DNA of 64,000 nucleotides, taken from contig OZ242365.1 in assembly GCA_965208905.1 (NCBI GenBank), forward strand, positions 992,001 to 1,056,000, read 5' to 3'. The stretch is from Nitrosopumilaceae archaeon (GTDB taxonomy: Archaea; Thermoproteota; Nitrososphaeria; Nitrososphaerales; Nitrosopumilaceae). Position 1 is the stretch's first letter; each line of letters starts with the position of its first letter. The position numbers were made by a program, and so were the translations under genes. Below the pieces are notes generated by a model. It saw nothing but the letters and a program-made list of their open reading frames with translations. It searched no databases and had not been told where the DNA came from. Shown piece after piece: positions 1,247 to 61,120 of the stretch.

Positions 1247-1974
1247 AAAGCCAATCTGTAAAAATCGATCAAAAAAACCCTGGACATTTTTTTACATGCT
1301 GTGGAATTCTGTATTGTGCAGATAGGATGTTCAAGGAGGCATACGGACATTTTAAAGAGGAACAGTTCGTTCTAAGTGCAGAATGTTACGAAAAACCCCT
1401 AAACGGCATATTACGAAACTTTCAACAATGCCAGTCTGAGACCATAATAGAACCTGATGGTGATAATTCTGACGCGCCACTATGCTTGAAAAGCATTCCA
1501 ACTAGGCTTGACTTTTACAGTCATTTTGACAATAGACCCAAGATCAAGCTATTTGCAGGACAAGAAAAAATCATGGACATTATAATGCGTTGGTTTACCT
1601 ATATAAAAAAATGGGACGGTAGGAACATAATCACACTACAAGATCTGGAAGAGATGAACGTGTCATCTGGGTTTGACACACACACATCGTGGAATTCACT
1701 AGACGTTGGCTTTTCGCTTAATCAACAAAAGATGCAACGACGTTCATATCCGCTGGTAGAATTTTTTGCGCATGTTGGGGCTCAGACATATAGTTGGAGT
1801 AAAAATGGGAATACATTCCAATACCAGATGTGGAACACTCCGCTTCCACTTGCGGTTGCAAGAGCAGTTGGAGCTGGTGCGATAAAGATGTCTAATACAA
1901 AATGTTTTCAATTTAAAGCAGAAAAATCAGGTCAGAAACAAGTTTTAAATAGTTCATACGAAGTGAGTGGATAG
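1243..1974 (+). CDS. csb3: Type I-G large-subunit-like protein (Csb3/Cas8g, short form)
   Basis: N-terminal NPGHFFTCCG motif, LDVGFS..YPLVEFFAHVG and W..PLP motifs; lies between cas3 and csb1 with overlapping start/stop. Confidence 0.7.
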   Translation: MKSQSVKIDQKNPGHFFTCCGILYCADRMFKEAYGHFKEEQFVLSAECYEKPLNGILRNFQQCQSETIIEPDGDNSDAPLCLKSIPTRLDFYSHFDNRPKIKLFAGQEKIMDIIMRWFTYIKKWDGRNIITLQDLEEMNVSSGFDTHTSWNSLDVGFSLNQQKMQRRSYPLVEFFAHVGAQTYSWSKNGNTFQYQMWNTPLPLAVARAVGAGAIKMSNTKCFQFKAEKSGQKQVLNSSYEVSG

Positions 1975-3016
1975 CATGGTTACTGATAAGGATATTAATG
2001 CATGGATAGACGGTAATGCTTCAGCCCTTGTTTTGCGAGAATATCTCAAACCAGTGGAGGGGGATCAGACGCCATTTTTTCCTCCTACATTTGCAGGAAC
2101 AGGTCAGGACGGAAGCGATTATTGCATAGACACTATGCGTGACGGAACTATGGTATGTTTGGTTGACACAGTAGGATCTCAGGCAAATCGGATGGAACCC
2201 GTATTTACACAGCAGCCATACGATGCACTCATTCCACAAATTACAATAAAGGCCCATAACGAAACAATAAATCTATGTGAGGTGGGGCACAGAGTTGCTG
2301 ATGCATTCTTGAAGAATTCTTCAATAAGCGATCTAATTGACAGTGCTTTAAATGCTCTGAAAAAAGAAAAGGATGCAACTAAATTGGCCAAGGTGGCACC
2401 CACTTCATTGGTCTTTGGAGTATGGGATTCTCGGAATACTCAGGTGAAAATGCCAAGAATTATCTCATCAGTGATAAGAGCTTATGACGTTGATGTTCTA
2501 AGTAGATCAGCGCAATACTTCCCTCCTGTAAATTATAGAGAAGAAAATATACTTGGCGAGAGCAAGGATAAGAAAGAAACCAATGCGCGTTCTGAACTTG
2601 GCTACAACGAGATCCCATCAACAAACACACACGGTGGAATAATTTCACATGGCCCCATACAAAGAGACACTGTTGTAAATTTTGCGGCGTTACGAAAGAT
2701 CAGGGCATCTGATGAAATCCAAACCAAGACATTGCAGGCATACATCCTAGGCCTCACACTTGTTGCCGCATTATCTATCCGGGAGTGGAATCTCAGGCAA
2801 GGTTGCTTGTTGACAATAGATCCGGACAGAGAAAAGCCCACTTGGAATTTAGTGTACCCTAACGGTGATCGAAATAAGGTCGATTTGAGCCAAAAAACCG
2901 TTCTCAAATATGCACAAGATGTTGCTAACAGATTCGGTATCGGTGAAAACAAAAAGGCCTCATTTGAGACAGAAAAGGCAAGTAAAGCTATAAAGGAAAA
3001 GATAAAAAAGAAATAA
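1967..3016 (+). CDS. csb1: Type I-G Cas7 backbone (Csb1)
   Basis: Motifs FFPPTF, DTVGSQANRME, HRVADA, PTSLVFGVWDS and LRQGCLL. Confidence 0.92.
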   Translation: MDSMVTDKDINAWIDGNASALVLREYLKPVEGDQTPFFPPTFAGTGQDGSDYCIDTMRDGTMVCLVDTVGSQANRMEPVFTQQPYDALIPQITIKAHNETINLCEVGHRVADAFLKNSSISDLIDSALNALKKEKDATKLAKVAPTSLVFGVWDSRNTQVKMPRIISSVIRAYDVDVLSRSAQYFPPVNYREENILGESKDKKETNARSELGYNEIPSTNTHGGIISHGPIQRDTVVNFAALRKIRASDEIQTKTLQAYILGLTLVAALSIREWNLRQGCLLTIDPDREKPTWNLVYPNGDRNKVDLSQKTVLKYAQDVANRFGIGENKKASFETEKASKAIKEKIKKK

Positions 3017-3025
3017 TAACTGCAA

Positions 3026-5086
3026 ATGTTGCGACAAGACACATTCAAACATCAGAACAAGTCGCCACATCTGGTTTTACGGGTTCGTTTTTTATTAAAC
3101 AGATATCATGGGAGTGAATATCCTCCATCCCCACGCAGGCTATTCTTAGCATTTGTATCTGCACTATACCAAAGTACATACCTGCGCATAAACGAAGACG
3201 CTGGAGAAGAAGCACTACATTTTCTAGAAAAACTACAACCGCCAACAATTCATGCGCCGTATCACCGCGGTTGTAAATACACCATATTTGTACCAAATAA
3301 CGACATGGACGTCATAAGTAAAAATTATGCTAGGGGGAAAGGATCGAATTATGATCCGAAGAAACTTACTTCGGGCAAAAAAATGAATCCGCACATAGTT
3401 GACATGATACAGTATTCTTGGAAGATTGGAAATGATAGCAGGAGTGAAAAATACGTACGTGTGTTGTCTCAACTGGCGCAGGAGATACCAGTGTTAGGCC
3501 TAGGCATAGATCCAGTATCTGTACACGGTGATATTGTAGATGGCACACCCTATCTGCAAAATGTAGAACAATATGTGGCAGATGAAAATACGGGTGAAAT
3601 GAGAATACAAGTTCCACAGCCCGGGCTTTTAGAAGATGCCAAGAGACATCACCATGAGTTTTTGAACAGAATTGATGGAGATCTGTTTCGTAAACCAGCA
3701 CCCATAACGAAATATCGTGAACAGAGATACAGTAAGCACAAGCAGCTTACAAAGATAATCGTTTTTAAGGTAACAAACAGTGATGCCAAGCTACGCCTCA
3801 TACCAAACAATAACCTGCCCACCCTTATCAAAAAATTCAGAGATAAAATGGGCTTAAAAGACAGTCAATCGATTAAAACTGTCGCGCTTCCAAGCATAGG
3901 GAGCAAGTACGCAGATGCAAGAGTACGCAGAATTGCAATCATTATGCCCCCCAATAATACTGGAGCTGGTGATGACTTGCATCGTAGACTTCGTATACAA
4001 AAACTTCATGTCGGTGGGGAGAATTACGATATAGAACCAATTCAAGACACGGATGGCGTTTATAGATTTTATGACCGGCCATCTAAATTATGGCGTACTG
4101 TTACGCCAGTAGATTTGAAACTCCCAAAACATTTCACGCGGCAAGATGTCACGCAAAATATCTTAGATCTCCTGCGTGTTGAAAACATTAGTGAACATGT
4201 GACCTTTATAAATTTCAGAAAAGAGCCGTATTGGAACGGACTTGCAAAGTCGTACAGTGACACTTCACTACATGTTGAGTTGGAATTTAAGATGCGTGTC
4301 AAAGGACCTTTTCTCATAGGGCAAAACCAGCATTTAGGGAACGGATTGTTTGCGCCATCAAATATGCCGAAGGTGGCATATTTTACGATCCTTGGAGAAA
4401 AACCCCGAATAGAAAAGACCATGCACGTAGCTACCCTGATGCGCAAATCAGTCATGTCCAGGATTGGAAAGGCGTTTGGCGATGAAGCAATTCCGTCATA
4501 CATATCCGGTCATGATGGCCATGGCAGAGCCTTGCGTGACAATCATAAACAGGCGTTTTGGCTACCAGTAGACACTGATCATGACGGGTTTATTGACAAC
4601 ATAGCCGTATTTGTGAAAGATGGGTTTGATAAAAGCATACAAAATTCGTTCTACGGAATAAGAGAGTTGAACAACGGTAATGACTTAAAACTTGATGTGT
4701 CTTTTAGAGGGTTTTACAGCAGAGAAGATATTGAAAAGAAGTGTGATTTGTTCAGTAAACAAAATAGCTGGAGATCAGGTACTCCGTATTTTATGCCATG
4801 GCACGAAAAGAAAAAATTTGGAAGAAATGAACAGATTGAGAAAGAGTGCAAGATGCGCGGTTTTGATTATGTTGGTGCTGGAGATTACATCATTAATCTT
4901 AACAAAAAACCAATTCAAATCAATAGGTTTTATAGCAGACATAACAAATTAAAGCCCATTAACCATCTTGGAAGCGCGTTAAAGATACACTTCAGCAATC
5001 CAACCAGAGGGCCCATATCCTTAGGGTTTGGTGCTCATTTTGGACTAGGAATGTTCATTCCCGACAATAACTTGGCCAGATCATAA
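3026..5086 (+). CDS. csb2: Type I-G Csb2 (Cas5-Cas6 fusion), long form with two Cas6-like modules
   Basis: N-terminal YHGSEYPPSPRRLF and FVPNND; two G-rich loops, GPFLIGQNQHLGNGLF and GPISLGFGAHFGLGMF. Confidence 0.88.
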   Translation: MLRQDTFKHQNKSPHLVLRVRFLLNRYHGSEYPPSPRRLFLAFVSALYQSTYLRINEDAGEEALHFLEKLQPPTIHAPYHRGCKYTIFVPNNDMDVISKNYARGKGSNYDPKKLTSGKKMNPHIVDMIQYSWKIGNDSRSEKYVRVLSQLAQEIPVLGLGIDPVSVHGDIVDGTPYLQNVEQYVADENTGEMRIQVPQPGLLEDAKRHHHEFLNRIDGDLFRKPAPITKYREQRYSKHKQLTKIIVFKVTNSDAKLRLIPNNNLPTLIKKFRDKMGLKDSQSIKTVALPSIGSKYADARVRRIAIIMPPNNTGAGDDLHRRLRIQKLHVGGENYDIEPIQDTDGVYRFYDRPSKLWRTVTPVDLKLPKHFTRQDVTQNILDLLRVENISEHVTFINFRKEPYWNGLAKSYSDTSLHVELEFKMRVKGPFLIGQNQHLGNGLFAPSNMPKVAYFTILGEKPRIEKTMHVATLMRKSVMSRIGKAFGDEAIPSYISGHDGHGRALRDNHKQAFWLPVDTDHDGFIDNIAVFVKDGFDKSIQNSFYGIRELNNGNDLKLDVSFRGFYSREDIEKKCDLFSKQNSWRSGTPYFMPWHEKKKFGRNEQIEKECKMRGFDYVGAGDYIINLNKKPIQINRFYSRHNKLKPINHLGSALKIHFSNPTRGPISLGFGAHFGLGMFIPDNNLARS

Positions 5087-5345
5087 GATAACTGCCGACT
5101 TTACAAAAAGGGTTACGTACTACCATAACATCTCTGCGACTATCCTGCCTCTGGGCCGCCTCCTTGGCATTCCCTATCAGCAAGAAAACTGCCGAGATGC
5201 TCCTTTATCGCATAGATCCTGGCAAGAGTCCAAAATACTTGAATCAACAATGATGAATCCACACCGGGATGCCACTTTATCAAATAGTCCTAGCAAGAAG
5301 CGATATGAGCTGTATTGGATATCCAAAAAGTTACACCTAGCTAAT

Positions 5346-5367
5346 AAATTTAGCCTAGGCTAAATTT
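5346..5367. promoter_or_regulatory. Perfect 22-bp palindrome AAATTTAGCCTAGGCTAAATTT abutting a TATA-like box; putative DtxR/MntR-family metal-regulator operator
   Basis: Palindrome seen directly, followed by TTTTATATA and 30 bp upstream of the multicopper oxidase-ZIP operon. The regulator family is inferred from resemblance to DtxR-type boxes. Confidence 0.6.
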
Positions 5368-5396
5368 TATATACCCATACACCACACACAGAATCA

Positions 5397-6410
5397 TTGA
5401 ATATATCCCGCACCCATCTGATGGCCGCATCCATAGGAGTGTCGTTTGTCATATTTGCCCTTCTTATAACGCCACATAGTTCTACTGCAGTAACTGAGCA
5501 AACATTTGTTACTCATTCAGGCGCCGTAATAAGTACCACCGGCGAGGTACTAGACCCACTATACACAGAAGCGACATTTGAGTTTGACCCAGACAAGTTC
5601 TTGCGCAACTTTGAGTATGGCCGCGTAACCATACAGCCGGATGGCACCACCCTACGCGAATACACTATAATAGCTCAGGATGACCAGATACAAGAGATAT
5701 CGCCCGGCGTATTCTATAACGTGTGGACCTATAATGGGACTGTACCTGGCCCAACCATACGTGCTACCGAGGGCGATACAGTACGAATACACTTTATCAA
5801 TCAGGGCTCAAAACAACACACCATGCACTTTCACGGCATACATCCTGCAGAGATGGATGGCGTCTTTGAGATTGTAGGTCCCAACGGTGGGCAGTTCACA
5901 TACGAGTTTGAGGCCGGACCCGTCGGAGTCCACCCGTACCACTGCCATGTTATGCCCCTTGAAGAGCATATAATACATGGACTGTATGGTGTCTTTATTG
6001 TAGACCCTATACAAGGCAGGCCAGCTGCAGATGAGATGGTCATGGTACTGAACGGCTTTGATACTGACTTTGATGGCGAGAACAACTTTTATGCTGCAAA
6101 TACCATCCCCTTCTATTACCAACATCACCCAATACAGATATCACTAAATCAACTAATACGAATATACGCAGTAAACATGGTGGAGTTTGATCCCATAAAC
6201 AACTTTCACCTACACGGAAACCTATACCACTACTACCCCACAGGTACTGATACTGTTCCATCCACATACACAGACATGATCACGCTATCCCAGACTGAGC
6301 GTGGGATACTAGAATTCTACTACTCCTATCCGGGCCAGTATGTATTTCACGCACACAAAGTAGAGTTCTCTGAGAAGGGCTGGGTTGGAACATTTCTGGT
6401 CTTAGATTGA
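5397..6410 (+). CDS. Two-domain multicopper oxidase (NirK-like/MCO family)
   Basis: Copper motifs HTMHFHG, YHCHVMPLEEHIIHGLYG, NFHLHGN and FHAH; N-terminal signal/TM segment. Confidence 0.88.
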   Translation: MNISRTHLMAASIGVSFVIFALLITPHSSTAVTEQTFVTHSGAVISTTGEVLDPLYTEATFEFDPDKFLRNFEYGRVTIQPDGTTLREYTIIAQDDQIQEISPGVFYNVWTYNGTVPGPTIRATEGDTVRIHFINQGSKQHTMHFHGIHPAEMDGVFEIVGPNGGQFTYEFEAGPVGVHPYHCHVMPLEEHIIHGLYGVFIVDPIQGRPAADEMVMVLNGFDTDFDGENNFYAANTIPFYYQHHPIQISLNQLIRIYAVNMVEFDPINNFHLHGNLYHYYPTGTDTVPSTYTDMITLSQTERGILEFYYSYPGQYVFHAHKVEFSEKGWVGTFLVLD

Positions 6411-7540
6411 GCCCTAAAACACTGGCAGGCGCCATCATACCATTCATACTGATTACCATACTTGTCATATACATAACAGGCCCCGGCTCAGACTATATCA
6501 TAATAGGTACACCACTACCTGAAGTGACACTAGAACGTATAGATTTTGTAGAGAATGAAATACAAGTTACCATACGAAATACAGGCCCAATACCCGTACA
6601 GGTAGTCCAAGCAGACGTAAATGACAGAATACAACCATCTGCTATAGAACCTGATGGAAGTTTAGAACGGTTCGAGACAGCATTGGTTCGCATACCATTC
6701 TTCTGGAATGAAGCCGAACCATACAATCTAGGCATAACCATACATGATGGTACGCGCTTTGAGAGGGAAGTAGCTGCTGCCTCGCCAGCCGTCACACCCG
6801 ACATTCAGACAACGACAAAATTTGCACTGGCAGGCGTATACATAGGTGTAATACCTGTATTCATAGGACTATTGTGGCTGCCCTTCATACGAAAATTAGA
6901 CTCTAAAAAATTGGGATTTTTTCTGGCCATCACAGTGGGCCTCTTGATATTTTTGGGAATTGATGCCATACAAGAGGCCCTTGAGGTATCAAAAGAATCT
7001 CTGGCAGGCTCCATCAACGGACCATTACTGATACTGGTTGCAGCATCGGGCGCATTTCTTGTATTGCAGTATATATCCGGACGATTCTCATCACATCGCA
7101 CAAAGATAACGGCAGCCATTCTAGTCTCCATCGGTATAGGTTTACACAACTTTGGTGAAGGGTTGGCGTTGGGGGCCGCGCTAAATTTAGGCTCGGTCGC
7201 ATTCTCTGCATCTTTGATGGTCGGCTTTGCCATACACAACACCACCGAAGGAGTGGCCATAGCCTCACCACTATCCAGACAAAAGAACATACTGCCAAAA
7301 TTAATCATATTAGGCATGGTGGCAGGCGCTCCAGCCATACTTGGCACATGGGCCGGCGGCTTTGCATACTCGCCCATTTTTATAGTAGCATTTTTGGCGG
7401 CGGGGGCTGGCGCAATATTTCAGGTTGCAATCGCAATATCTCAATGGATGTTAAAAGATAACACATATCACTCATATCAGATATGTGGAGGCATATTCTT
7501 GGGTATGATAATCATGTATGCAACTGGTATACTGGCATAG
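6407..7540 (+). CDS. ZIP-family divalent metal transporter
   Basis: GIGLHNFGEGLA and HNTTEG signature helices; multiple TM segments. Confidence 0.88.
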   Translation: MSPKTLAGAIIPFILITILVIYITGPGSDYIIIGTPLPEVTLERIDFVENEIQVTIRNTGPIPVQVVQADVNDRIQPSAIEPDGSLERFETALVRIPFFWNEAEPYNLGITIHDGTRFEREVAAASPAVTPDIQTTTKFALAGVYIGVIPVFIGLLWLPFIRKLDSKKLGFFLAITVGLLIFLGIDAIQEALEVSKESLAGSINGPLLILVAASGAFLVLQYISGRFSSHRTKITAAILVSIGIGLHNFGEGLALGAALNLGSVAFSASLMVGFAIHNTTEGVAIASPLSRQKNILPKLIILGMVAGAPAILGTWAGGFAYSPIFIVAFLAAGAGAIFQVAIAISQWMLKDNTYHSYQICGGIFLGMIIMYATGILA

Positions 7541-8124
7541 GTTCCTCCCGCAAGGACGGGTGTTGGTTGATGTGTGTTGGATAATGTTAAATACGTAATT
7601 AAACCGTACTGTATAGTGGCATCAGTAAAAAATAGCAGGGCAGTAACACGTCCATACGCAAAAAATTTGGGCATGCAACACGTGTTTGAGCATGGCAGAA
7701 GGATGGGAAGTTTGGACGCAGCTTACGTCGCAGATTACATTCTGCCATGATGCGAAAGGCATCGGATTTAATTTATGAAAAGTCCCAATTTTTGGGAGTG
7801 GAGGCACTACATATGCGTCCACACAACACATCCAAGTTGTGTGCTGCATGCAGAACCATATTAACTGGAACTTATCATAAAAAAGACTGCACCCACTGCC
7901 GTACAGTTGGCGTAGATCGTGACGTCAACGCAGTGGAGAACATACGGCGAACAAGCGCCGTATCCCGATATGGTTCGTAAGGTTTCGGCCAGTCTGGGCG
8001 AAGTCCGTCGTGGTGTGGATGTAATACTCGATCCCACACCACTCATACAGGGTTGCTGGAGCAACTGGGCCGACAGACTATCCCGCGTGGTGATGTGACA
8101 TCACCCGACTTTGCGGGAGGAACC
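7540..8124 (+). mobile_element. Non-autonomous IS6-like TIR element carrying a deleted tnpB
   Basis: Perfect 14-bp TIR GGTTCCTCCCGCAA (7540-7553 / 8111-8124); 8-bp TSD CTGGCATA (7532-7539 / 8125-8132). Confidence 0.9.
7690..7980 (+). pseudogene. tnpB: TnpB C-terminal remnant (Zn ribbon + RuvC-III)
   Basis: KFGRSLRRRLHSAMMRKASDLIYEKSQFLGV...HNTSKLCAAC...CTHC...DRDVNAVENI; N-terminus absent. Confidence 0.8.
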
Positions 8125-13419: not shown

Positions 13420-14820
13420 ATGATTAAAGTTATATACGGAATAACTATAATAGCGGCGACTTTGTTAGTAGGCGGAATACCAAATTTGGCCACTGCCCAG
13501 GAACAGATACAGGTACAAGCATCCTTCTTTCCATATGCTGAATTTACTAGGAATGTAGTTGGTGATACTGCAACTGTATCACAGTTTCTACCAGTAGGTG
13601 CGGGACCACACGATTGGGAACCAAGCATACGTCAGGTACAGACACTGAGTAGTGCCGATATCATAGTGTATAACGGTCTAGGTGTAGATATGTTTATGGA
13701 TAGGCTGATCGAATCAGGAGATTTGGGTGACACACATATTATAAAAGCTACTGAGGGTTTGACTCTTCTTACCACAGGCGTCTCTGATGCAATAGCTTTC
13801 ATACTAGAGGAGCATGAACATGGTCACTATGACGATGATGAGGCAATAGATGCAATGCATGATGTTATAGATGATTATAATATTCGTGGCATATTACAGG
13901 AGTACCGTGCAGGAGATCTGTCCACGACAGAGGCACTAGGTGAAATTACTACTATATTGCGTGGCGCAGAACACGGTCATGACCATGACCATGACGACCA
14001 CGATGACCACATGACGACCACCGACGATCATGACGACCACCACGATGAACACGATGAACACGATGAACACGATGAACACGATGAACACGATGAACACGAT
14101 GAACACGATGAACACCACGACGAACACGGCGATGACGCTGAGATTGTCCACGAAGTTCATGAAATACTAGAAGAGGCTGAAGAGGGACACCTCACCAACG
14201 CTGAGGCACTTGAGGAGATAGAGCATCTCTTAGATGACCACGCCCACGACGACCATGATGACCACGGTGATGAGCATGCTCATGATCATGGAATATACGA
14301 CCCACATGTCTGGCTAGACCCAGTATTGGCTCAACACCAAGTGGAGACCATACGAGACGGTCTTGTCGATGCAGATCCAGATAACGCTGCTGCCTACATG
14401 GCAAATGCAGAATCTTATCTACATGAACTTGAAGACCTACATGATCAGTATGTTTCCACACTGGCAGATTGCAGGCATGACACCATTGTGACATTCCACT
14501 CGGCATTTGCCTATTTGGTGGAGCGATACGATCTGAAGGTCGAGTCTCTGACTGGACTTGATGGTGCTGACGCTATAAGTACTGCTGATCTAATCGAGCT
14601 TGCTGACTTCATTAATGATAACAACATCGATTACATTCTTACTGAGTTTGGTGTAGACCAACGTAACTTTGAGGTAATAGCCGAAGAGACCAATACTACA
14701 GTACTGACACTTAGCCCAGTAGAGGGTATTTCACAAGAAGACGTTGATTCAGGCGCTACCTACATCAGTAAAATGATGGAAAACCTCGGTGTGCTAAAGA
14801 CAGCACTAGACTGCAACTAG
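13420..14820 (+). CDS. ZnuA-like metal ABC substrate-binding protein with very long His/Asp/Glu-rich insertion
   Basis: GPHDWEPS, DPHVWLDP and TFHSAFAY; ~170-aa His-rich loop. Confidence 0.88.
   Translation: MIKVIYGITIIAATLLVGGIPNLATAQEQIQVQASFFPYAEFTRNVVGDTATVSQFLPVGAGPHDWEPSIRQVQTLSSADIIVYNGLGVDMFMDRLIESGDLGDTHIIKATEGLTLLTTGVSDAIAFILEEHEHGHYDDDEAIDAMHDVIDDYNIRGILQEYRAGDLSTTEALGEITTILRGAEHGHDHDHDDHDDHMTTTDDHDDHHDEHDEHDEHDEHDEHDEHDEHDEHHDEHGDDAEIVHEVHEILEEAEEGHLTNAEALEEIEHLLDDHAHDDHDDHGDEHAHDHGIYDPHVWLDPVLAQHQVETIRDGLVDADPDNAAAYMANAESYLHELEDLHDQYVSTLADCRHDTIVTFHSAFAYLVERYDLKVESLTGLDGADAISTADLIELADFINDNNIDYILTEFGVDQRNFEVIAEETNTTVLTLSPVEGISQEDVDSGATYISKMMENLGVLKTALDCN
14041..14112 (+). repeat. 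Coding tandem repeat (CACGATGAA)x8 = (HDE)8
   Basis: Eight perfect 9-bp units counted directly. Confidence 0.95.
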
Positions 14821-21636: not shown

Positions 21637-23098
21637 GGAGCTTATGCGATCAAACCAAAGTACTTTACTTTAAATATTCGTAATTGCCCATATAGGTATG
21701 TCCACAATAACACGCACAATACATGTGGCGCACAACAACGGGCAACTCCTGGGAGGTCTTCTGCACTACATACTCGCCGCGTCCAACGGTACCGCCAAGG
21801 CACTCCGTAGGGGCGTGCGGGGCAAGGAACTGAGGCGCAGGGCGGTACACCACACACGTGTGTATCAAACACGCTTTGCCGACTACATTGTATTGGATGT
21901 ATTTGGAAGTCACAAGGCATGGCGTACAAAGCAATTGACGGATAAACATGCCCGCGCGCCGCACTTTCGTAATCCGGTGGCGCAGACCGACATATTTGAG
22001 TTGGCATTTGATGATACATCAAAACGGTGGAACGGCACGCCGTCAATCCATGTAGCAGTATATGGAACGGGTCGGCAGAATAGGTCGTGGATGGTATTTC
22101 CGGTACCGCCATATGTCGTAAATGAGCTTGGCAGGCCAAACAGGACACCCAAAACCGTATCCATAAACAGGGATGAGATATTCATCACGTATCGGGAAAA
22201 TGTGCAGGATAGTAAAGCCGTAATGTGGGCAGGTGTGGATATGAATGCAAAGAACAACGCGTATTCATTCACTGATGGTACGGTAACTATTGTGGGCAAC
22301 CGAAATGGGAGTGAGTACAACAGGGCGTGTAGCAGGATATTGAAGGTGAGGCGGCGGAACGATGACCGCATCATGACAAAGTATACGGGAAAGGCATGGA
22401 AAACATACGGGAACCGCATACGCAATGATGTACATGTGGAGGCCAAAAGGTTGGCCAATGCGCGGTGTGTCGTAGGGTTTGAGACGCTGAACATCCACAA
22501 TCTGTACAACAAAAATGGTAAAATGTCGCCATATGTCCGCGGCAAGACGAAAGCGACGCTGAATACCGGCCAGAGGCAGGCTGCCCTCAAGAACGCGGCA
22601 GAGTCCGCGGGGCTACCAAGTGTGGGCGTTGAGCCGCGCAACACGTCTGCCAAATGCCACAAGTGTGGCGGAAGACTGGCGTTTCACAGTAAACGGAGCG
22701 GCGAGGTGCCGCTGCGCAACATGCGCTGCGGGGGTGTGTGCAGGGCAATGCGGGAGAGGGATGCCAACGCCAGCACCAACATATTATTGCTTACAATACG
22801 GAAATTAATGGGTGATTCTGTCGTTTCGACTGGAACCATCACGACGTCCGAGCTGCTGCAACTACTCAAAGTGGTGGTTGCCAATCGCACAGTCCCGCAT
22901 CGTAAGAAATTAATCGACATCATGCGGCTCTTAGAGGGTCGTAGCGCAAACACCTTGTGGTGTTTGTCGGGGGCGCACAAACCAAAACACCGTAATTACG
23001 TCGACGGTGACTCCATGGGTGTATTTGGGGTGGGCGATGCCGGCCGGAACGGTCCGGGGCCGCCCAATGCTGCCAAGTTGTGATTATGCATAATCTCT
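21637..23098 (+). mobile_element. TIR-type tnpB element E2 (same family as E5; ends degenerate)
   Basis: Left end GGAGCTTATGCGATCAAACCA aligns with the E5 end AGAGTTTATGCGTAATCGAATCA; right end ATTATGCATAATCTCT; no clear TSD. Confidence 0.65.
21698..23083 (+). CDS. tnpB: TnpB-like RNA-guided nuclease
   Basis: RuvC-I GVDMN, RuvC-II GFETL, NTSAKCHKC..CGGVC and RuvC-III RERDANAS; full-length paralogue of 36511-37914. Confidence 0.85.
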   Translation: MSTITRTIHVAHNNGQLLGGLLHYILAASNGTAKALRRGVRGKELRRRAVHHTRVYQTRFADYIVLDVFGSHKAWRTKQLTDKHARAPHFRNPVAQTDIFELAFDDTSKRWNGTPSIHVAVYGTGRQNRSWMVFPVPPYVVNELGRPNRTPKTVSINRDEIFITYRENVQDSKAVMWAGVDMNAKNNAYSFTDGTVTIVGNRNGSEYNRACSRILKVRRRNDDRIMTKYTGKAWKTYGNRIRNDVHVEAKRLANARCVVGFETLNIHNLYNKNGKMSPYVRGKTKATLNTGQRQAALKNAAESAGLPSVGVEPRNTSAKCHKCGGRLAFHSKRSGEVPLRNMRCGGVCRAMRERDANASTNILLLTIRKLMGDSVVSTGTITTSELLQLLKVVVANRTVPHRKKLIDIMRLLEGRSANTLWCLSGAHKPKHRNYVDGDSMGVFGVGDAGRNGPGPPNAAKL

Positions 23099-36505: not shown

Positions 36506-37980
36506 AGAGTTTATGCGTAATTGCACAACTTGGCAGCATTGGGTGGTCCCGGCCCGTTCTGGCCGGCACCGCCCACCCCGGTACAGCCCATCGGCTCACC
36601 GCCGACGGAATTCTGGCGTTCCGGTTTGTGCGCCCCCGACAAATGCCATTCGGCATCTGCACTACGACTCTCTAACAGCCGCATGATGTTAAGAAGTGTA
36701 ATTCTCCGACCATGCGTGAGTGTGCGGTCGGCGGCCGCCTCTTTCAGCAGCCGTGTTATGTGGTATAGTGTGGTGTTTGATGATATAGTGGTATTACACA
36801 TCAGAGCCAAAATGGTACGAAATAGTATGTTGGCACCCGCGTTGGCATCCCGTTCCCTAATTGTACGACATGTATAGCACCACATGTCGCGGGTCGGTAT
36901 TTTACCGGTATTGGTCCCAATATGTTTTAGATCTCCGCCACATTTGAGACATTTCGCGGACGTATTTCGTGGTTCGATGCTTATATGCGGCAGACCCTCG
37001 GACTCGGCTGCGTTTTTGAGTGCATTCTGTCTCTGGCCCGTATTCAGTGTGGATTTTGTTTTGCCACGGATAAATGGTGATATTGTATAGTTTTTGGTGT
37101 ACAGTCGGTGTATGCTCAATGTTTCATGCCCTATGCCGTATCCGGCATTGGCCATCTTCCGGGCTTCCACACATACATCATTATGGATGCGGTTTTTGTA
37201 CACACTCCATGCCCTGTTTGTGTATTTTGTCATAATGCGGTTATCGTTACGCCGCTTCACCTTTAGCATCTTGCTGTGTGCCTTGTTGTATTCACGTGCA
37301 TTGCGGTTGGGCCGCATAACTACAGTGCCATCAGCGAATGCATAGGTGTTGTTTTTGGCATTCATATCCACACCGGCCCAGGATATGGGCTCGCTATACG
37401 GAACGTCTTCCTTGTATGTAATGTATATCTCATTATATCTTAGTAGTACAGTCTTTGGTATTCTACCAGGCTTGGTAAGCTCATCCACTACATATGGTGG
37501 TACAGGGAAGGCCAGCCATGGCTTATCTGGACGGCCCCTACCGTATATTGGTACATGTATTGATGGTGTGCCATTCCATCGTTTTGATGTATCATCAAAT
37601 GCCAGCTCGAACCTGTCAGTCTGCGCCACAGGGTTGTGGTAGTGTGGGGCACGTACATGCACATTAACCAACTGATTCGTACGCCATGCCTTGTAGTTTC
37701 CATGCACGCTTTGTATTATATAGTCGGCGAAGCGTGAGTGGTATACGCCAGTACGGTGCACCGCCATACGATATAGTTTCTTGCCGCGCACACCCTTGCG
37801 TAATACCTTCGCAGCATGGTTGGACGCAGCCCCCACATAATGTAACAAACCACCCAAAAGATGTCCACTGTCATGTGTTACATGGATGGTGCGCATTATT
37901 GTGCCCATACACATGATGTATAGCTTATGGTATTTATATATACGGTACTGTACATCATGATTCGATTACGCATAAACTCT
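36506..37980 (-). mobile_element. TIR element carrying only tnpB (element E5), 3-bp TSD
   Basis: Perfect 16-bp TIR AGAGTTTATGCGTAAT (36506-36521 / 37965-37980); TSD GTT (36503-36505 / 37981-37983). Confidence 0.9.
36511..37914 (-). CDS. tnpB: TnpB-like RNA-guided nuclease
   Basis: GVDMN, IGHETL, NTSAKCLKC..CYTC and RERDANAG. Confidence 0.87.
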   Translation of the reverse strand: MCMGTIMRTIHVTHDSGHLLGGLLHYVGAASNHAAKVLRKGVRGKKLYRMAVHRTGVYHSRFADYIIQSVHGNYKAWRTNQLVNVHVRAPHYHNPVAQTDRFELAFDDTSKRWNGTPSIHVPIYGRGRPDKPWLAFPVPPYVVDELTKPGRIPKTVLLRYNEIYITYKEDVPYSEPISWAGVDMNAKNNTYAFADGTVVMRPNRNAREYNKAHSKMLKVKRRNDNRIMTKYTNRAWSVYKNRIHNDVCVEARKMANAGYGIGHETLSIHRLYTKNYTISPFIRGKTKSTLNTGQRQNALKNAAESEGLPHISIEPRNTSAKCLKCGGDLKHIGTNTGKIPTRDMWCYTCRTIRERDANAGANILFRTILALMCNTTISSNTTLYHITRLLKEAAADRTLTHGRRITLLNIMRLLESRSADAEWHLSGAHKPERQNSVGGEPMGCTGVGGAGQNGPGPPNAAKLCNYA

Positions 37981-50681: not shown

Positions 50682-50855
50682 AATACCGCCAGACTGCACT
50701 GGGCGCTGGACATAGACAACTATGAAACATCCATGATGGTGTTCTGCAACAAGACGACCATTAACTAGACACGGAAGCAGAATTCCAAGTGGATGGAGGC
50801 GGACATCAATGAGTGACAGCTACGACGTAGCGCGACATGATTTCTATACAATACA

Positions 50856-51555
50856 TGTACCTGAGCATATACATAAATTATTATGCTTGAAAAAATCATC
50901 TTCCGATATTATCACTGGTCAGAAGGGGATAAATGATTACCCTCATGGTGCTCTCATGACCGGCTCCCAAATAGTCATTAACTACTTAAACCGTCCGAGC
51001 TAACCTCACCGTCCGCCTCGTGATATATATATTTCAACACTCTCTTAAGAAGGTACATCCTCAGTAACCGTTTAACCTCCCCACAAATGAGTTCCTCCCG
51101 CAAGGCTGGATGGCGGCCCGAGACGAATCACGATGCCGCTAGACGCCCACTACATCCAATATGTGACAGAAGAAGGATGTTGATGGGATGGTACGCAACG
51201 GAATGCCCTGCGTTTGGACATGGTGAATTCACCCGTTGGTGTAGAAGAACCCGTTTTATGGTCCTTATAAGGGGGTTAAACGGTTACCATACTCAGCCCC
51301 TCTTGGTTTTCAGGTGTGATGTCTGACTGAATTTCGTTGTTCTACGCCTACAAAAGGAGAGGGTTGGGCATGTACCTTAAGTAGTGTCTCTTTTTTTGCC
51401 TACTTATCACCGCCGTTACACATGCTTGCATGCATGTTTAGTACTCACCCTAATTGATATTTGATATTTGTTATCCTGTTGCGGTATGCCTTTGCAGTCA
51501 TTTTACGGTTCTAGTGAATTCGTACTGATTTAATAATTCCCTCCTATCTTGGTCT
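50856..51555. repeat. Left arm of ~370-bp inverted repeat flanking IS481 element (interrupted by insertion 51050-51378)
   Basis: Near-identical reverse complement of 55453-55820. Confidence 0.9.
51050..51378. mobile_element. Nested MITE-like insertion
   Basis: Absent from the other repeat arm; ends AAGGTACAT/ATGTACCTT with AAG duplication; inner IR GTAACCGTTTAACC (51064 / 51288) and an IS6-like end GTTCCTCCCGCAAGG at 51091. Confidence 0.7.
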
Positions 51556-51629
51556 TGTTGTAGTATATGAAAATTATGGGAATTATATAGTTTGTAACAA
51601 ACGAATATAAGGCAGAATCCCCCCCCCGT

Positions 51630-53414: not shown

Positions 53415-54359
53415 TTATGCAATCAACGCTTCATAAGTAAGCCTCTTTCCCATCATACCTCTAACTAGACTTACCATCATGTCTATTGTGTCTAGATTCC
53501 GAATGTTTAGCCGTCCTGCAAACTCGTTAACATACCTGTGTAGATGCTTTGCCGATATGTGATGAAACGTGCCGTAATAGCCACGCTTTAACAAAGCCCA
53601 GAAAGACTCTATGCCGTTGGTATGCGCCATGCCGTTTACATATTGACTAACGGAATGGTTAACCGTTTCATGATTAGGTAGGTTTTGGTATGCCCTACTC
53701 TCGTCCGTATAATGGGTTGCTCCCGTCTTGGTGTTTTGTTCAATAAATTTACCAAGACGGGCAGCGGTTGTATCCGGTACGGGTTCGGCTCTGATGTTAC
53801 CTGTCTTTCTATCTTTGATTCCAACCACGGCGGTTTTGTTGGCGCCGCCTTGACTGTGTGGGGTTTTCTTGTCTGCATGCTTGTTGGATTCCTTGCCTCC
53901 GAAATATGCCTCGTCAATTTCGACTGGGCCTTCCATCTTGTCTGTACCTGCCAGTGTATGCCATGATTCACGTAACCTTTGTACCATGAACCATGCCGAC
54001 TTTTGGGTTATGCCCAAATCCCTATGCAGTTTCATTGAACTAATACCCTTAACGTTGGTCATGAACTGATATGTTGCAATGGCCCATTGTTGATATGTCA
54101 TATGGGATTGTTCCATGATTGTTCCTACCTTGACACTAAACCGCTTGTGGCAATTCCCCACACCTGCACAGTAATACGGCATCTTTTTGTACTTTGTTTT
54201 TTTGATGTTGGTATTACCACAAAACGGGCAGCATGGCTTATCGTCCCAAATTGTACGTTCAAACCACTTTTCGGCGGCATCATCATCAGGAAATATCTTG
54301 AATAGTTTTGCAAGCGTTATTCCTTCACGGTGACTTTTACCGGGTGCTTGTTGGCTCAT
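53415..54359 (-). CDS. IS1595-family DDE transposase, intact
   Basis: CPFC Zn ribbon, VEIDEAY, YTDE, TVNHS and HTNGIESFW..LKR. Confidence 0.93.
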   Translation of the reverse strand: MSQQAPGKSHREGITLAKLFKIFPDDDAAEKWFERTIWDDKPCCPFCGNTNIKKTKYKKMPYYCAGVGNCHKRFSVKVGTIMEQSHMTYQQWAIATYQFMTNVKGISSMKLHRDLGITQKSAWFMVQRLRESWHTLAGTDKMEGPVEIDEAYFGGKESNKHADKKTPHSQGGANKTAVVGIKDRKTGNIRAEPVPDTTAARLGKFIEQNTKTGATHYTDESRAYQNLPNHETVNHSVSQYVNGMAHTNGIESFWALLKRGYYGTFHHISAKHLHRYVNEFAGRLNIRNLDTIDMMVSLVRGMMGKRLTYEALIA

Positions 54360-54427
54360 AGTATACCTTAGAAACATGGATTATATAAAGATTGTTACAA
54401 AGTATATAATTCCCAAAATTATGTCCG

Positions 54428-55368
54428 CTAGTCATTTGACTTCGCCTCCATCCAGTTGGGGCCCTTTGCCTTGGTCTTCTCGGCCGCTTTCTTGGCCGAG
54501 AACGCCTTGAGCGAAGTCTCGTAGTTGGCTATGTCCAGCGAAAAGTGGAGTCGCCTCTTGTTGTAATGCTGGATATACTCGGGCAGGCTCTCGTAGTGAC
54601 CTATCTCTTCCTCGATGGTTCTGTGGAACCGCTCAAGCTTCCCGTTCATCTGGGGGTGGCATGGTCTTGAGTTCATCAACTCGATACCCCTACCCAAGAG
54701 CTCCTCCTCGAACGCGGTGGACTTCCAGGATCCTTTGGGGTTGCCCTTGCGCATGCCCACAAAGCAAGATCTATTGTCCGACAGGATGGTAGCCGGCGTT
54801 CCGAACCGCCTAATTGTTTACTGGAGCGCCACCACGGCGTTCTCCGAGGTAGCCTAAGTGAACCGGCTCGCCCCGGTCACGCATCTTGAGGCATCGTCCA
54901 GGAATGTGATGAGACAAAGCCCACTCATACGCGAACTCTTCATGACGTGCCAGTTGGTGTACCACATGGAGTTGGAGTGCTTACGCTCGTATCGCACCCA
55001 CTTATGCTTTCGTGACTTTGCTTCGGATGGTGCGACTCGCTCACTCTCCTTCATAATCAGGATACTCGCTGGTAGATTATATTATGACCCGCTCTGCGCA
55101 GGCTTATTGCCGTGCGTACCACGCCTACCTCCTCCAACTGGTAGGCGTCCAGTACCAACTGTACCTCATCCGGCGACGGCGATAGCAGGGCGGGCCTGCC
55201 CGGAGTGCGCGGAATAGGCGCGGATCCGGTCTTGCGGAACTTGGCGTACGGCCTCCGAATGTGCCTTGATGTCACTCCGAGCTCGGCGGCCACCACAGAA
55301 GATCTCCTGCCTTTCTCAAGTTGGTTTATGGCGTACCGGATGGACTTTGCCGTAAGACGCTTTGCCAT
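54428..55368 (-). pseudogene. IS481-family transposase pseudogene
   Basis: Three fragments (55057-55368, 54854-55054, 54428-54760) homologous to 44544-45482. Confidence 0.88.
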
Positions 55369-55452
55369 ATTTTTTCTTGATCGATACAGCGTATAATGCT
55401 CCTTTATGGTGCGCTTGATCTTAGTCGGACCTAATTTCCGTACAATAGAACA

Positions 55453-55820
55453 AGGTCAGGATAGGGGAGAATTATTAAATCAGTACGAATTCACTAGAAC
55501 CGTAAAATGACTGCAAAGGCATACCGCAACAGGATAACAAATATCAAATATCAATTAGGGTGAGTACTAAACATGCATGCAAGCGTGTGTAACGGAGGTA
55601 ATTAATGGGCAAAAAAGAGACACTACTTTTTAAGAGAGTGTTGGAATATATAGATCACGAGGCAAACGGTGAGGTTAGCTCGGACGGTTTAAGTCGTTAA
55701 TGACTATTTGGGAGCCGGTCATGAGAGCACCATGAGTGTAATCATTTATCCCCTTCTGACCAGTGATAATATTGGAAAATGATTTTTTCAAGCATAATAA
55801 TTTATGTATATGCTCAGGTA
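55453..55820. repeat. Right arm of long inverted repeat
   Basis: Reverse complement of 50858-51049 plus 51379-51555. Confidence 0.9.
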
Positions 55821-56609
55821 GGTTCCTCCTGCAAGGACTAGTGGTGATCTAAATGACTTAGATTCGGACCAAAATTCGCCTCAAACCGGACATGCGCAGG
55901 TCGTCATAATTCATTTTTGGCCGGTTTTTACCAAGTCCCACTCAGATGGGGCATATGCGGAGGCAAAAATCCATACTGTATCATGGTGTCGGGCATTCGC
56001 GGTACATTACGCAGCGGATACGGCGTTCTGTATGAGCGTCAGCCACTTGTCTGTACCCTGTATGTCTATGCCGGCAGAGCCCCACTTGTCCCCCACGCAC
56101 GGCGGCTTAATGGTCTTGGCATACTCGTCTGCCACACTGGAATAGTGCTCCAGGGTTCTGGTTATGCTGTCCACGTGTACCTCCACTCCCAGATGTTTGA
56201 GCGTCACCTGAATGTTGGGCACCATCTGGGTTGCGGCAGCATATACCAGTCAGAAATGTAATCCGTGTGGCTACACCCACAAGGACAACCGGGATGGTAG
56301 AAAATTCTTGTGTAAACGGCGTGGCCATACACGTCATGCTGACTGTAATGCGGGCGCCAACATAGAGGATGCGGGACTAAAAAAGTTGGGTCCAGAGGCC
56401 ATGCATGGTCAACTAAACTTACGAAACTTGTCGGACCATGCCGGCAACACCCATGTTAAGGAGTATCTGGGCGTGAGGGTTCTTGCATCAACTCCCCTGA
56501 GAAACGTCAAGCACAGACTGGGAAACGAGATGCTCTACGCACCGTCGCTCTCTGGCGTGACGTGTAATGTATTGTAGATGCGGGAACCCCCGTGTTTGCA
56601 GTAGAAACC
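55821..56609. mobile_element. Deleted IS6-type element containing a transposase relic (-) and a tnpB relic (+)
   Basis: TIR GGTTCCTCCTGCAA / GGTTTCTACTGCAA. IS6-like LGVEVHVDSITR..GDKW and GIDIQGTDKWLTLIQNA at 56007-56225; TnpB YTSQKCNPCG..HADCNAGANI at 56225-56577. Confidence 0.8.
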
Positions 56610-56714
56610 CGTACAATCTCTGTATAATCAGAGAATTCTACAAAATGATTAAACCAAAAAGTTGAAAAGTTTTGAGTTTATACCATATTACCGTAAATAT
56701 TATACAATATGTAA

Positions 56715-57029
56715 ATGATGTTTAGACTGCTAAACCATAGAATATCACAACTTCAGAGAAACCTGCAACCTGACATACTTGAGTACTGGCATACACAAAT
56801 CATACATGATGCCCAAGATATGGCTCCTCCCTGGCTGCAGGACAAGATATCTGTAAAGCAGGACCCTTATCTTCCCATGAAGTTTAATCTGAACATATCA
56901 AAGCGTGCAATATCATATTATATGATGGCTTTAAACCAAAACCTACCACAAATGCCACTATCTACACAACTATACTTTCTAAAGGTGACCGAGTGCCTAA
57001 ATGATGAGATAGACCAGCAACTAGTCTAA
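56715..57029 (+). CDS. Hypothetical protein
   Basis: 104-aa ORF convergent with ileS. Confidence 0.6.
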   Translation: MMFRLLNHRISQLQRNLQPDILEYWHTQIIHDAQDMAPPWLQDKISVKQDPYLPMKFNLNISKRAISYYMMALNQNLPQMPLSTQLYFLKVTECLNDEIDQQLV

Positions 57030-57031
57030 CG

Positions 57032-60000
57032 CTATCCTATACCTATGCGCAGGCCTTGTCCGTCTATGTCTATATCCTTGTATTTTAATTTGGATGATGA
57101 TGTAAATGTCACTACTCTAACTCGTACTATGGCTGACAAGTCAAACTGTCCAGACTCTACCAAACCAATAGATGTATCATCAAGGCCTATCACTGAGGCC
57201 TCATCAAGTATGTCGGTGGGATTATACCCTGCCTCTTTGCGGAGATTCTGTATCTGTCGGGCTACATCCCGAAGGCGCCAGCGAGATACTGTGGCATCAT
57301 CACTCTTTGTGGATACAAAGACGATGTGCCCGTCTTTTGTGGCAGATTGGTAGCCTTCTGCCGGCTCATATCCTATTATAAAGTCAGAAACATCTAATGA
57401 TATCTCCTTATCATCCATCGAAAATGTGTAGTGCCCCCTCTTTAACGACTCTACTATTGTGTCCGGGCTGGTCTGGCTAAACTCTCTACTTAGACGCGGC
57501 ATATCGCCCTTCAAGCGAGGCCCTAACTTCTTTCTGTCTAGTGACACTGTGGGGACCACTGGCATCTTTATCTGGCGCATCTGTATGTATCCCTCTAAAC
57601 CATCTACTATGTCTCTATGTTCTATTGGGCGTAGCACCTCTACATTCATTCTCTCTTTGAGATATGCCTGTAGCGTATCTACCGACTCTTTGTTGGCCGG
57701 TACTACGACTAGCGCTTCACGAAGGGGCCAACGTCTCTTTAGTTTTGCACGGGCACGCGCGGCTGCAGTTGCCGTAAGTATGGACTTCATGGAGTCAAAA
57801 GCATCCTCTATATCTTTATTGATCATTTCATGATTTATGGTGGGCCACTCTTGCAGCAGTATGGAATCCGAACCACCAAATGCCTCCCTGTACAGGTATT
57901 CACTAAAGAACGGACAGAAGGGGTGTATCATGATGTCTAGAGTCTTGAGACATCTGCCTATGACTGCGTAGATTGCCTCCCGCCTACGTCTCTGGGATGC
58001 GTCATCCTCCCAAAGCTGGCCTCGGACACTGGGTATATACGATTGACTTAGAGAGTTTATCATGAATTCTTCGATGGATTTTGCCGCCTCATGAAATCTA
58101 CACTGATCTATCTTTTCAGTTACCACACGTATGGTGTGTTGCAGCTTGGACAGTATCCATATATCTGGATGGTCCAACAGAGACTCATCCTTGGCCCACT
58201 GCACATCATGTGTTGCATCATAACTGTCATACTCGCTGTTCTGTATATAATACAGGTGTAGATTGTACAGGGTACTGAGTATCTGGTATGGTCTGGATGT
58301 CATCTCTGATGGTGAAAAATTTAATGGCTCCACAGGACTGGCCTTCCACATAAAGTAGAGCCGGACCAAGTCCACAGGATTCTCTTTTAATAGATCTTTT
58401 GCTGGTATCACATTGCCCAAACTCTTACTCATCTTGCCGCCCCGCTCATCTAGAACGTGCCCTTGGAACAAGAACGATTTATACGGTGATGTGCCGTTTA
58501 ATATGACGTTCTCGACTAATAGTGTATACGCCCACCCCCTTGTCTGGTCTATCCCTTCAGTGAAGAATGGTGCTGGTATGTCTCTATTATATTCATCATT
58601 GTTTAGTGATGCAAATGGCGCCGCACCACTGTTGTGCCATGTATCTAGCACGTACTGTTCTCGGACTGTATTGTAACTGTTACATCTCTTACATCGTGTG
58701 CGTATCTTGTCAATCCATGGACGGTGCAGCTCAAAATTACTTCCATCCGGAAGCGATTCGGCATTCTGTATTATGTCGTCTTTGGTGTAGTACCATGTCT
58801 TTGCTGAGCAGTCATTACAGTGCCAGACCGGCATAGGGCAACCCCAATACCTCTCTCTGGATATGCACCATGGATGCTCCTCACCTACGATGCTCAAAAA
58901 TCTATTCTTTGGGGCGTCAAAAAAGTATCTTACATGCTGGGCTGCATGTAGTGTTTTGGAGTCTAGCCGGTCTAACTTATAAAACCAGCCACGACGGGCC
59001 AACCACACTATGGGGTGCTTTGATCTCCAACAGAGTGGATACTTGTGGTTAATTTTGCCAATCTTGACTAGCGACTTTACATCTTTTAGATCCGACACTA
59101 TGATATCATCTGCATCCCGTACAAAGAGTGTACTGTATGCCCCCGCCTCGGATGTAAATCTGACACGCTCATCTATGGGACAGAATATCTCTATGTTGCG
59201 ACGATGAGCTATCTGTATATCATCCTCACCATTGGCAGGCGCCAAGTGTACAAGACCCGTCCCAGCATCCACATCTACAAACGATTCGGCTACTGCTATA
59301 TGGTATGTACCTCTGGATATGAGATTATCAAGTTCGGGGATCTTGTGTAGCAGTGGATGTATGTAGCGCTTACCCTCAAATACAGAGCCTGGCACTACTT
59401 TGACTATATCGTATCCTGTTATGTTTATCTCCTCCATGAATGTTTCTAATCGTCGCTGCGCAATCACCCACTCTTCATCATATCTGTGTATGTGCACTAT
59501 ACAGTACATCTCATCTGGGTGAAGTCCCACCATAGCATCGGTTACCAAGGTAAATGGCATAGTCGTCCACACGACTAGATGTATATCTTCATCGACTAGC
59601 TTTACCTTATAGTATAAGGAGGGGTCTGTCACTGTATCGTATCCTTGGTTTACTTCGGCATGACTCAATGAGGTCTGGCAGCCGGGACAGTATCCTATCA
59701 CTGTGTGGTCGTCCTCTAGTATGCCTGATTCGTGAGCTTTCTTTAGTACCTGCCACTCCCGCTCTATGTATTCATCTGTATACGTCCAGTAGGATTTACT
59801 ATGATCCATACCCATTCCCATGAGATCGTCTACCTCCTCCCACTCTGCATTATATCTGGATACGATAGCCTTGCACTGTTCTACCAATCTCTCTACGCCT
59901 ATGCTGCCCTCGATGGCACTCTTGTCACCAGCAACCCCTAACTCCTTCTCTGCCTGCAACTCCACTGGCAACCCCTGAGTGTCCCAACCTCCGTAAAAGA

Positions 60001-60985: not shown

Positions 60986-61120
60986 GGTTCTTCCCGCAAG
61001 GATGGGTGATTGATCTAAATAATCCAGATCTGGACCGCAATTCGACCCAGACCGGGCATGCGCGGGCCGCCAGAGGAGACTCCGAGGGCCTTATGCTAGT
61101 GGGCACCCCCGACTGTTTTT
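60986..61120 (+). mobile_element. IS6-like element left-end remnant
   Basis: GGTTCTTCCCGCAAGG followed by ~85 bp homologous to 55821-55905. Confidence 0.7.

Follow-up and report, generated by a model that had tools for sequence, protein, structure and literature searches.

Insertion sequences (IS) of the IS200/IS605 type have no inverted ends, generate no target duplications and depend on the Y1 transposase TnpA (PMC3627910, PMC13565253). Another setting of tnpB was described by Altae-Tran et al. (2023, PNAS; PMC10691335), whose TnpB branches DDE-1 to DDE-6 have inverted repeats and adjacent DDE transposases. Solo TnpBs with near-identical ends were interpreted there as mobilised in trans. 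Its main text names IS630 as the partner; ISL2, IS630 and IS1031 are given as partners of TnpB in a 2026 review (PMC13565253). Here we analysed a window of 64,000 nucleotides from the genome of a Nitrosopumilaceae archaeon, and within it a 789-bp stretch (window positions 55821–56609, genome positions 1047821–1048609) in which the remains of an IS6/IS240-like DDE transposase gene and of a tnpB gene lie back to back between one pair of terminal inverted repeats. The host genome is complete, consists of a single contig of 2.21 Mb and encodes archaeal AmoA, which marks the host as an ammonia-oxidising archaeon. An earlier interpretation made from the letters of the window, hereafter the sequence-only reading, had taken the stretch for the relic of one autonomous element enclosing both genes. 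According to our analysis, it is very probably a dead chimera, formed from two separate mobile elements that each had a single gene and that share their terminal inverted repeats.

A motif search located both ends of the relic. The left terminal inverted repeat occupies 55821–55846 on the plus strand; its core at 55821–55834 is GGTTCCTCCTGCAA without mismatches, and 23 of its 26 bases are identical to the end of a transposase relic at genome position 926302. The right one has its core at 56596–56609 on the minus strand and reads GGTTTCTACTGCAA, an imperfect inverted copy of GGTTCCTCCTGCAA. With up to two mismatches allowed, the motif was found at six sites in the window (7540, 8111–8124, 51090, 55821, 56596–56609 and 60986), while 0.28 sites were expected by chance and none of 100 shuffles reached six. 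The IS6-like ends proposed in the sequence-only reading, and the further members of the same end family that it had placed at 7540/8124, 51091 and 60986, were thus all recovered.

The left part of the relic (55821–56077, minus strand) is the end piece of a DDE transposase element and includes the last 22 transposase codons at about 56007–56075. Relic positions 1–255 correspond, at 67% identity, to positions 1–254 of a reference pair of elements at genome 924780–927837, taken as its reverse complement. At 56075–56078 the match skips from reference position 254 to 702; this is the joint of an internal 447-bp deletion with which the catalytic core was lost. It is followed by a helix-turn-helix (HTH) piece of the transposase gene (56078–56223, minus strand; 75% identity to reference 702–846). 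Both pieces are fused in frame in a 72-aa open frame (56007–56225, minus strand) without a catalytic domain. Alignment of this frame to an intact 388-aa transposase from a sister genome gave two blocks. Residues 4–49 match residues 172–219 of the intact protein (53% identity, E 1e-23), that is, the HTH region ending in VGDKWG, and residues 50–71 match its C-terminus, residues 366–387 (77%, E 4e-10). Residues of about 220–365 are gone, including the DDE domain match, which spans 215–309 in the intact protein. The minus-strand transposase relic with HTH region, GDKW motif and C-terminus was therefore correctly recognised from the letters.

The right part (56224–56609, plus strand) represents the last 386 bp of a tnpB-only element of the type that we call class B, with TnpB residues 351–468, a guide-RNA-like scaffold and the right end; over relic positions 404–789 it is 77–86% identical to nine genomic copies. 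Its open reading frame (56212–56577, plus strand) aligned with residues 351–468 of a 477-aa TnpB that the host genome encodes in intact form (75%, E 2e-61) and matched Pfam Cas12f1-like_TNB with 39.3 bits (cut-off 26.3), in agreement with the plus-strand 3′ relic of tnpB assumed before. Read through, the tnpB relic has one TGA and one TAG, and the second CxxC of its zinc finger reads CKRRG instead of the CKECG of the intact copy, so that one cysteine pair is lost. The junction between the transposase and tnpB relics lies at 56223/56224, in line with the back-to-back joint previously put at about 56225.

Pfam assigned no family to the 72-aa relic or to fragments of the genomic transposase relic, and the family assignment therefore rests on the intact homologues. 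These reach Pfam DDE_Tnp_IS240 with 30.4 bits (element L024) and 31.7 bits (L065; cut-off 27), and their top NCBIfam match is IS6 (transpos_IS6) with 73.8 and 84.2 bits, respectively, both short of the cut-off of 125. Many database homologues have a precomputed PF13610 match, often together with the SWIM family PF04434. The intact protein is laid out as an N-terminal CxC...CxH motif (SWIM), a zinc ribbon, the HTH region and the DDE domain. The IS6 assignment of the sequence-only reading thus holds insofar as the intact homologues reach DDE_Tnp_IS240, while 56007–56225 itself has no Pfam match. Like members of the IS6/IS26 family (PMC6807381), the elements have a DDE_Tnp_IS240 domain, ends starting with GG and an 8-bp target duplication, and one of their end variants begins with GGTTCTGTTGCAAA, the same 14 bases with which the IS257 end given in PMC4856351 starts. 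They differ from that family in length, with 1439–1716 bp compared to 0.79–0.88 kb (789–880 bp) in the main bacterial group, and in a transposase of 388–402 aa that has an extra SWIM finger and zinc ribbon in place of H-HTH and DDE domains only. The NCBIfam IS6 score below cut-off sets them apart as well. The seventh base of the ends gives a mixed picture: Harmer and Hall (2019, PMC6807381) describe IS6/IS26 ends with a GG start and G at position 7; all five end variants found here start with GG, and position 7 is T in variants v1 (GGTTCCT) and v2 (GGTTCTT) and G in some copies only (GGTTCTG). In the same publication, archaeal 'IS6-like' members are argued not to belong in the family.

If the relic derived from a single autonomous IS, in which one pair of ends enclosed a divergent transposase gene and tnpB and which then shrank by internal deletions, intact relatives should hold both genes. 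The divergent orientation of the two relics between one pair of ends agrees with such a parent, and DDE transposons with tnpB inside one end pair exist elsewhere (PMC10691335). However, the genes were found together in none of the ten transposase elements examined and in none of the 20 full-length tnpB elements of the host genome. Four transposase elements are intact and have one gene for 388–402 aa each (L024, 1453 bp; L029, 1482 bp; L065, 1631 bp; L092, 1716 bp); L024, for example, comes from a sister genome, encodes a single protein of 388 aa between ends GGTTCCTCCCGCAA and is flanked by the duplication cgccatcg. The other six (L025–L028, L066 and genome 926302–927837) are decayed or otherwise not intact, and their lengths of 1439–1628 bp leave no space for a tnpB of 1.2–1.4 kb. 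The copy at 926302–927837 (1536 bp, five in-frame stops) is the only long copy of this transposase element in the host genome, and the left 403 bp of the window relic correspond to two collinear pieces of it. A further 485-bp element with the same ends at genome 646148–646632 contains N-terminal transposase remnants (residues 6–108), which brings the helper-element relics of the host genome to three.

The tnpB elements of the host genome fall into two classes. Class B comprises eight full-length copies of 1513–1519 bp with a lone TnpB gene, encoding 464–479 aa in six of the eight; the protein of an intact copy scored 145.5 bits against NCBIfam guided_TnpB (NF040570, cut-off 100) and matched solved TnpB structures. 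Class A comprises 12 copies of 1608–1644 bp, nine of which encode a 517–527-aa protein with a TnpB TNB domain, and its ends are near-perfect copies of the repeat that bounds the relic. No transposase was found inside any of the eight full-length class B or 12 class A elements of the host genome. The parent structure proposed in the sequence-only reading (inverted repeat, transposase gene, tnpB, inverted repeat) thus finds no support in either kind of element, the former holding the transposase only and the latter tnpB only. A candidate two-gene element in a sister genome dissolved on inspection. This element, L067 (G005:C1:1746500-1754700, 285–8044), extends over 7.76 kb between v3 ends with an exact 8-bp duplication cgaagagc; alignment showed that this 7.8-kb candidate is a tnpB element harbouring, 31 bp inside it, a nested 6.25-kb IS1595-family transposon with its own inverted ends, passenger genes and a nested IS66. 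L068 and L069, too, proved to be tnpB elements with nested IS630, IS5 or IS66. Finally, the sole intact two-gene arrangement found, at genome 924780–927837, has two complete inner ends 8 bp apart. A single-element parent is largely refuted by these data, and we give it hardly any credence.

The DDE–TnpB link postulated from the letters is nevertheless real, and consists in common ends on transposase and tnpB elements. In the genomes of the genus, three of five end variants (v1, v2 and v5) occur on transposase elements as well as on tnpB elements, so that the ends of the two kinds co-vary. Variant v1 (GGTTCCTCCCGCAA) occurs on transposase elements L024–L029 and on tnpB elements of the host genome and L055; v2 (GGTTCTTGTGCAAA) on transposase elements L065 and L066 (genomes G006 and G001) and tnpB elements L037, L038 and L043; and v5 (GGTTCTCTTGCAAAC.GTGTTGA) on transposase elements L092 and L093 (G009) and tnpB elements L049 and L053. 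The v1 motif is confined to the genus: we counted 50 sites in the host genome, 10–48 in eight of nine sister genomes and 0–2 in each of 51 genomes from outside. Target duplications were found around both kinds of element as well. Exact 8-bp duplications flank eight of 12 class A copies, four of eight class B copies (two more match at 7/8) and two of four small derivatives (one more at 7/8), amounting to 14/24 for tnpB or small elements of the host genome, while 112 shifted comparisons used as a control gave at most 5/8. Among the transposase elements, four of the ten examined have an exact 8-bp duplication (L024, L029, L065 and L092). In sister genomes, other GGTTC-type ends enclose the same tnpB lineage, here too with duplications of 8 or 9 bp, and small derivatives of 163–585 bp coexist with the full-length elements.

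Because end variants are common to both element types and duplications accompany them, the tnpB cassettes are most likely non-autonomous passengers that IS6/IS240-like transposases move in trans. In the complete host genome, the Y1 IS200-type TnpA (PF01797) gave no match, while a control search was positive in six of 14 reference genomes. The cassettes resemble the IS1341 group, the tnpB-only members of IS200/IS605, in their single guided_TnpB-type gene and the structured RNA-like region at its 3′ side, but differ from IS200/IS605 by inverted ends of 14–25 bp and 8-bp duplications in a genome without Y1_Tnp. Miniature inverted-repeat transposable elements and other non-autonomous derivatives that are moved in trans likewise share only terminal repeats with an autonomous element; unlike these, the tnpB cassettes hold an intact conserved gene and an RNA module rather than non-coding filler. 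With the DDE-associated TnpBs of PMC10691335 they have in common the inverted repeats around tnpB, near-identical to the ends of the transposase elements (v1, v2 and v5), and the short distance from the 3′ end of tnpB to the element end (below 250 bp there, about 42 bp between stop codon and right end in class B). They differ from the elements described there in that both genes never occur within one end pair, only as abutted pairs with complete inner ends. In layout alone, they can be likened to the Fanzor1-bearing DDE transposons of eukaryotes (Bao and Jurka 2013, PMC3627910), which combine a TnpB-type nuclease passenger with inverted ends and target duplications; Fanzor1, however, is eukaryotic and usually resides in the same element as the transposase.

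Several observations do not sit easily with movement in trans. No partner transposase was found for variants v3 and v4 (both from G005), and the host genome has no intact transposase for v1 ends. Thirteen intact transposase paralogues of the host genome (30–36% identity) were considered as v1 helpers and yielded no evident one, those resolved carrying other ends (GGAACTGGTGCATC..., GGTTCTGGGAAATCA..., GGTTCTGTCAAGATAGCG...). In addition, the class A copies at genome 329442–331057 and 891631–893246 differ at five of 1616 bases and have unlike duplications (8-bp or 9-bp); they must therefore have moved recently. Class A has thus moved in recent times in a genome without an intact v1 transposase.

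How two such elements could come to lie between one pair of ends is illustrated by the reference pair. The 3,058 bp at genome 924780–927837 consist of a class B element (tnpB on the minus strand), the 8 bp agcgttga and the transposase relic (plus strand), with both inner ends complete (926293 and 926302). The octamer ttaaactc is present on both outer flanks. This single outer duplication is a pattern that neither order of separate insertions would give; the 3,058-bp pair thus moved as a unit. When this pair is reverse-complemented, the window relic follows it collinearly: relic positions 1–255 correspond to 1–254, 258–403 to 702–846 and 404–789 to 2672–3058. The full-length transposase copies examined with these ends never contain tnpB, which the sequence-only reading had connected with a one-off nested insertion. 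This second part did not hold, since the side-by-side layout is intact at 924780–927837 and moved as a unit. For the relic itself, nested insertion would call for a second, end-precise deletion, as there is no transposase sequence past 56609.

A locus in a sister genome revealed how abutment arises. In L026 (G006, 960–2569), a resident transposase element is adjoined by a 163-bp element whose duplication is tgtttttt, and the right-hand duplicate is the 8-bp spacer between them. Abutment thus results from insertion into the 8 bp beside a resident end. With the pair at 924780–927837, this makes two cases of 8-bp-spaced, end-adjacent insertion in the genus and suggests a target preference for the flanks of resident ends.

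On this basis the history of the window relic may be pictured as follows. The first partner would have been an IS6/IS240-like DDE transposon of 1.44–1.72 kb with one 388–402-aa transposase and 8-bp duplications; the second, a cassette of about 1.5 kb in which the same ends enclose tnpB with its promoter and a guide-RNA-like scaffold, lacking a transposase and moved by the enzyme of the first in trans. At the window locus, the two would have stood with their inner (left) ends facing, as in the pair at 924780–927837. One deletion would have taken 447 bp of the DDE core. A second, of 1825 bp across the inner ends, would have cost the transposase its N-terminal half and the tnpB element its first 1127 bp, along with the inner ends of both. 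We infer that the relic goes back to an abutted pair and not to two elements lying farther apart, and regard direct descent of the window copy from such a pair as close to an even matter.

This caution is due to a number of findings that speak against the arrival of the relic as a pair. The flanks show no target duplication (ctcaggta and cgtacaat, 2/8 matching), although the arrival of a pair as a unit predicts one. The tnpB part is 86% and 83% identical to the copies at 418840 and 973756, respectively, and thus nearer to these than to its counterpart in the intact pair (82%), and the transposase part is just 67–75% like the other relic (926302–927837); descent from that particular pair is therefore not supported. 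On its left, the relic borders directly on the terminus of an rve-type IS (54392–55820). In the 97%-identical sister genome G005, homology begins exactly at 56610 with unrelated DNA upstream, for which no syntenic match was found in the host genome. Moreover, a contig of 2827 nt from another sample (run X7) has the same flanks with 56077 joined to 56613, 115 other letters replacing 56078–56612; a different, shorter allele thus exists at the same site. Broken synteny, another allele and the abutting IS together identify the locus as a rearrangement hot spot. In an empty-site test, the right flank of the relic was not the continuation of the neighbouring IS copy.

Contigs of two more samples (X6 and X23) diverge from the window at 56077, and the X23 continuation, read by hand, consists of undeleted transposase residues. 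The X23 contig comes from an RNA library (801 nt, covering 55626–56077) and is unlike the window past both ends. We rejected it as a sign of transcription of the relic, as it derives from another copy and such libraries can contain DNA.

The same findings would fit parents that had never abutted. In that case, the two elements would have inserted independently, some distance apart or at different replicons or sites, and would have been joined by a deletion of the intervening DNA or by ectopic recombination between dispersed copies, in the course of the rearrangements that affected this locus. The missing target duplication, the synteny break exactly at 56609/56610, the IS adjoining the left end, the alternative allele and the unequal divergence of the two relic halves from the reference pair all favour such a course. 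On the other hand, order and orientation in the relic are exactly those of the intact pair, and, with end-adjacent insertion at 8 bp seen twice in the genus, an abutted precursor requires one deletion only. We therefore consider parents that were never neighbours unlikely, if by no means far-fetched. As to the wider process, we propose, tentatively and at less than even odds, that end-adjacent insertion repeatedly sets a tnpB cassette beside its helper DDE element and that the resulting pair then transposes as a two-gene unit; the window relic would be a second, decayed instance. If this were true, abutted pairs would be a natural intermediate toward autonomous DDE–TnpB transposons such as those of the IS630-linked TnpBs and the Fanzor-bearing transposons of eukaryotes.

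The chimera also retains a putative RNA module. Across v1, v2, v3 and v5, i.e. all four variants that carry this type of tnpB, the roughly 170 nt that precede the tnpB stop codon are the best-conserved part of the element. In the relic, this structured region lies at 56400–56569 (plus strand), ends at the tnpB stop codon and is decayed. Its consensus has 38 predicted pairs, five of them with compensatory changes; pair 90–107, for instance, is AU nine times, GC five times and UA once. No Rfam family was found in 54000–57200 at E values up to 1. Judging from conservation and predicted folding, the region is most likely an omega-RNA scaffold, and a role as guide RNA would follow from this likeness. 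The relic is the sole sequence with C–A non-pairs at pairs 89–108 and 92–105 and has a 1-nt deletion in addition; given these two stem-breaking changes and the deletion, we regard it as functionless. Downstream of the scaffold, the last 40 nt (56570–56609, plus strand), which include the right terminal inverted repeat, differ among the end variants. From a TATA-like promoter to the stop codon, the tnpB module is kept across the variants, and exchange is limited to some 25–45 nt at the left and some 40 nt at the right.

The sharp boundary at the stop codon, with some 40 nt after it specific for each end variant, could be taken to mean that tnpB owes its spread not to a DDE enzyme but to RNA-guided homing, its targets being small non-coding elements of this end family that were already in place. 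The variant-specific 40 nt after the scaffold would then serve as the guide, and the duplications would date from the insertion of the empty small elements. Small elements with the same ends and unrelated fillers do occur, one of 189 bp at genome 1631396 and the 163-bp element of L026. Yet both share just their 14–25-bp ends with class A or class B, and no empty small element joining the left and right arms of class B was found. Furthermore, the elements have an internal GGTTCT that does not vary and that could form base pairs with AGAACC or GGAACC at the terminus, as read by eye from the alignment, where covariation is weak. This pairing fits a modular guide adapter that spans the transposon end, with the guide lying outside the element, as proposed for the elements in PMC10691335; those studied here would resemble them in this respect too. 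We thus hold homing into empty elements to be improbable, and movement of the tnpB cassettes by DDE transposases in trans remains our preferred reading.

Other members of the end family in the window are fragments or deletion derivatives. The 585-bp element at 7540–8124 (plus strand) is a class A tnpB element with an internal deletion, flanked by the 8-bp duplication ctggcata. At 60986–61071 (plus strand) we found a solo 86-bp end fragment of a transposase element with 73–75% identity to 55821–55906 and to the relic end at genome 927837. A solo end at 51090–51103 (plus strand) lies within a 339-bp insert (51053–51391) in a copy of the rve-type IS that neighbours the relic. This neighbour (54392–55820) is IS481/IS3-like and has a frameshifted transposase; the copy that holds the insert with its GGTTCC-family solo end (50692–51600) is inverted and internally deleted and follows a C-terminal remnant of a further copy. 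Elsewhere in the window, 15 in-register copies of a 9-bp repeat (ACGATGAAC and variants) occupy 13964–14293 within a 466-aa frame (13420–14820). Long inverted repeat arms at 21904–23082 and 36524–37702 show 72–91% complementarity and overlap two frames of 461 and 467 aa, which are probably paralogous genes in opposite orientation.

The window relic itself is a case of ordinary decay. That TnpB can reside within DDE-type ends and be moved in trans has been known since 2023 (PMC10691335); the IS6/IS240-like partner is new, unless it is already contained in branches DDE-1 to DDE-5. The literature passages that our search brought up do not name an IS6/IS240-like partner of TnpB with SWIM finger and zinc ribbon, and no literature on the end motifs GGTTCCTCCCGCAA and GGTTCTTGTGCAAA was found. 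With this partner, the IS6/IS240-like SWIM/zinc-ribbon transposase joins the few DDE enzymes known to lend their ends to cassettes with TnpB. The case is an unusually clean one, with three matched end variants of helper and passenger, exact module boundaries, an exchange restricted to the ends and one pair that moved as a unit. It makes two questions directly testable, namely how a TnpB guide RNA copes with exchange of its end-proximal adapter and what benefit TnpB brings to an element that is moved by a DDE transposase.

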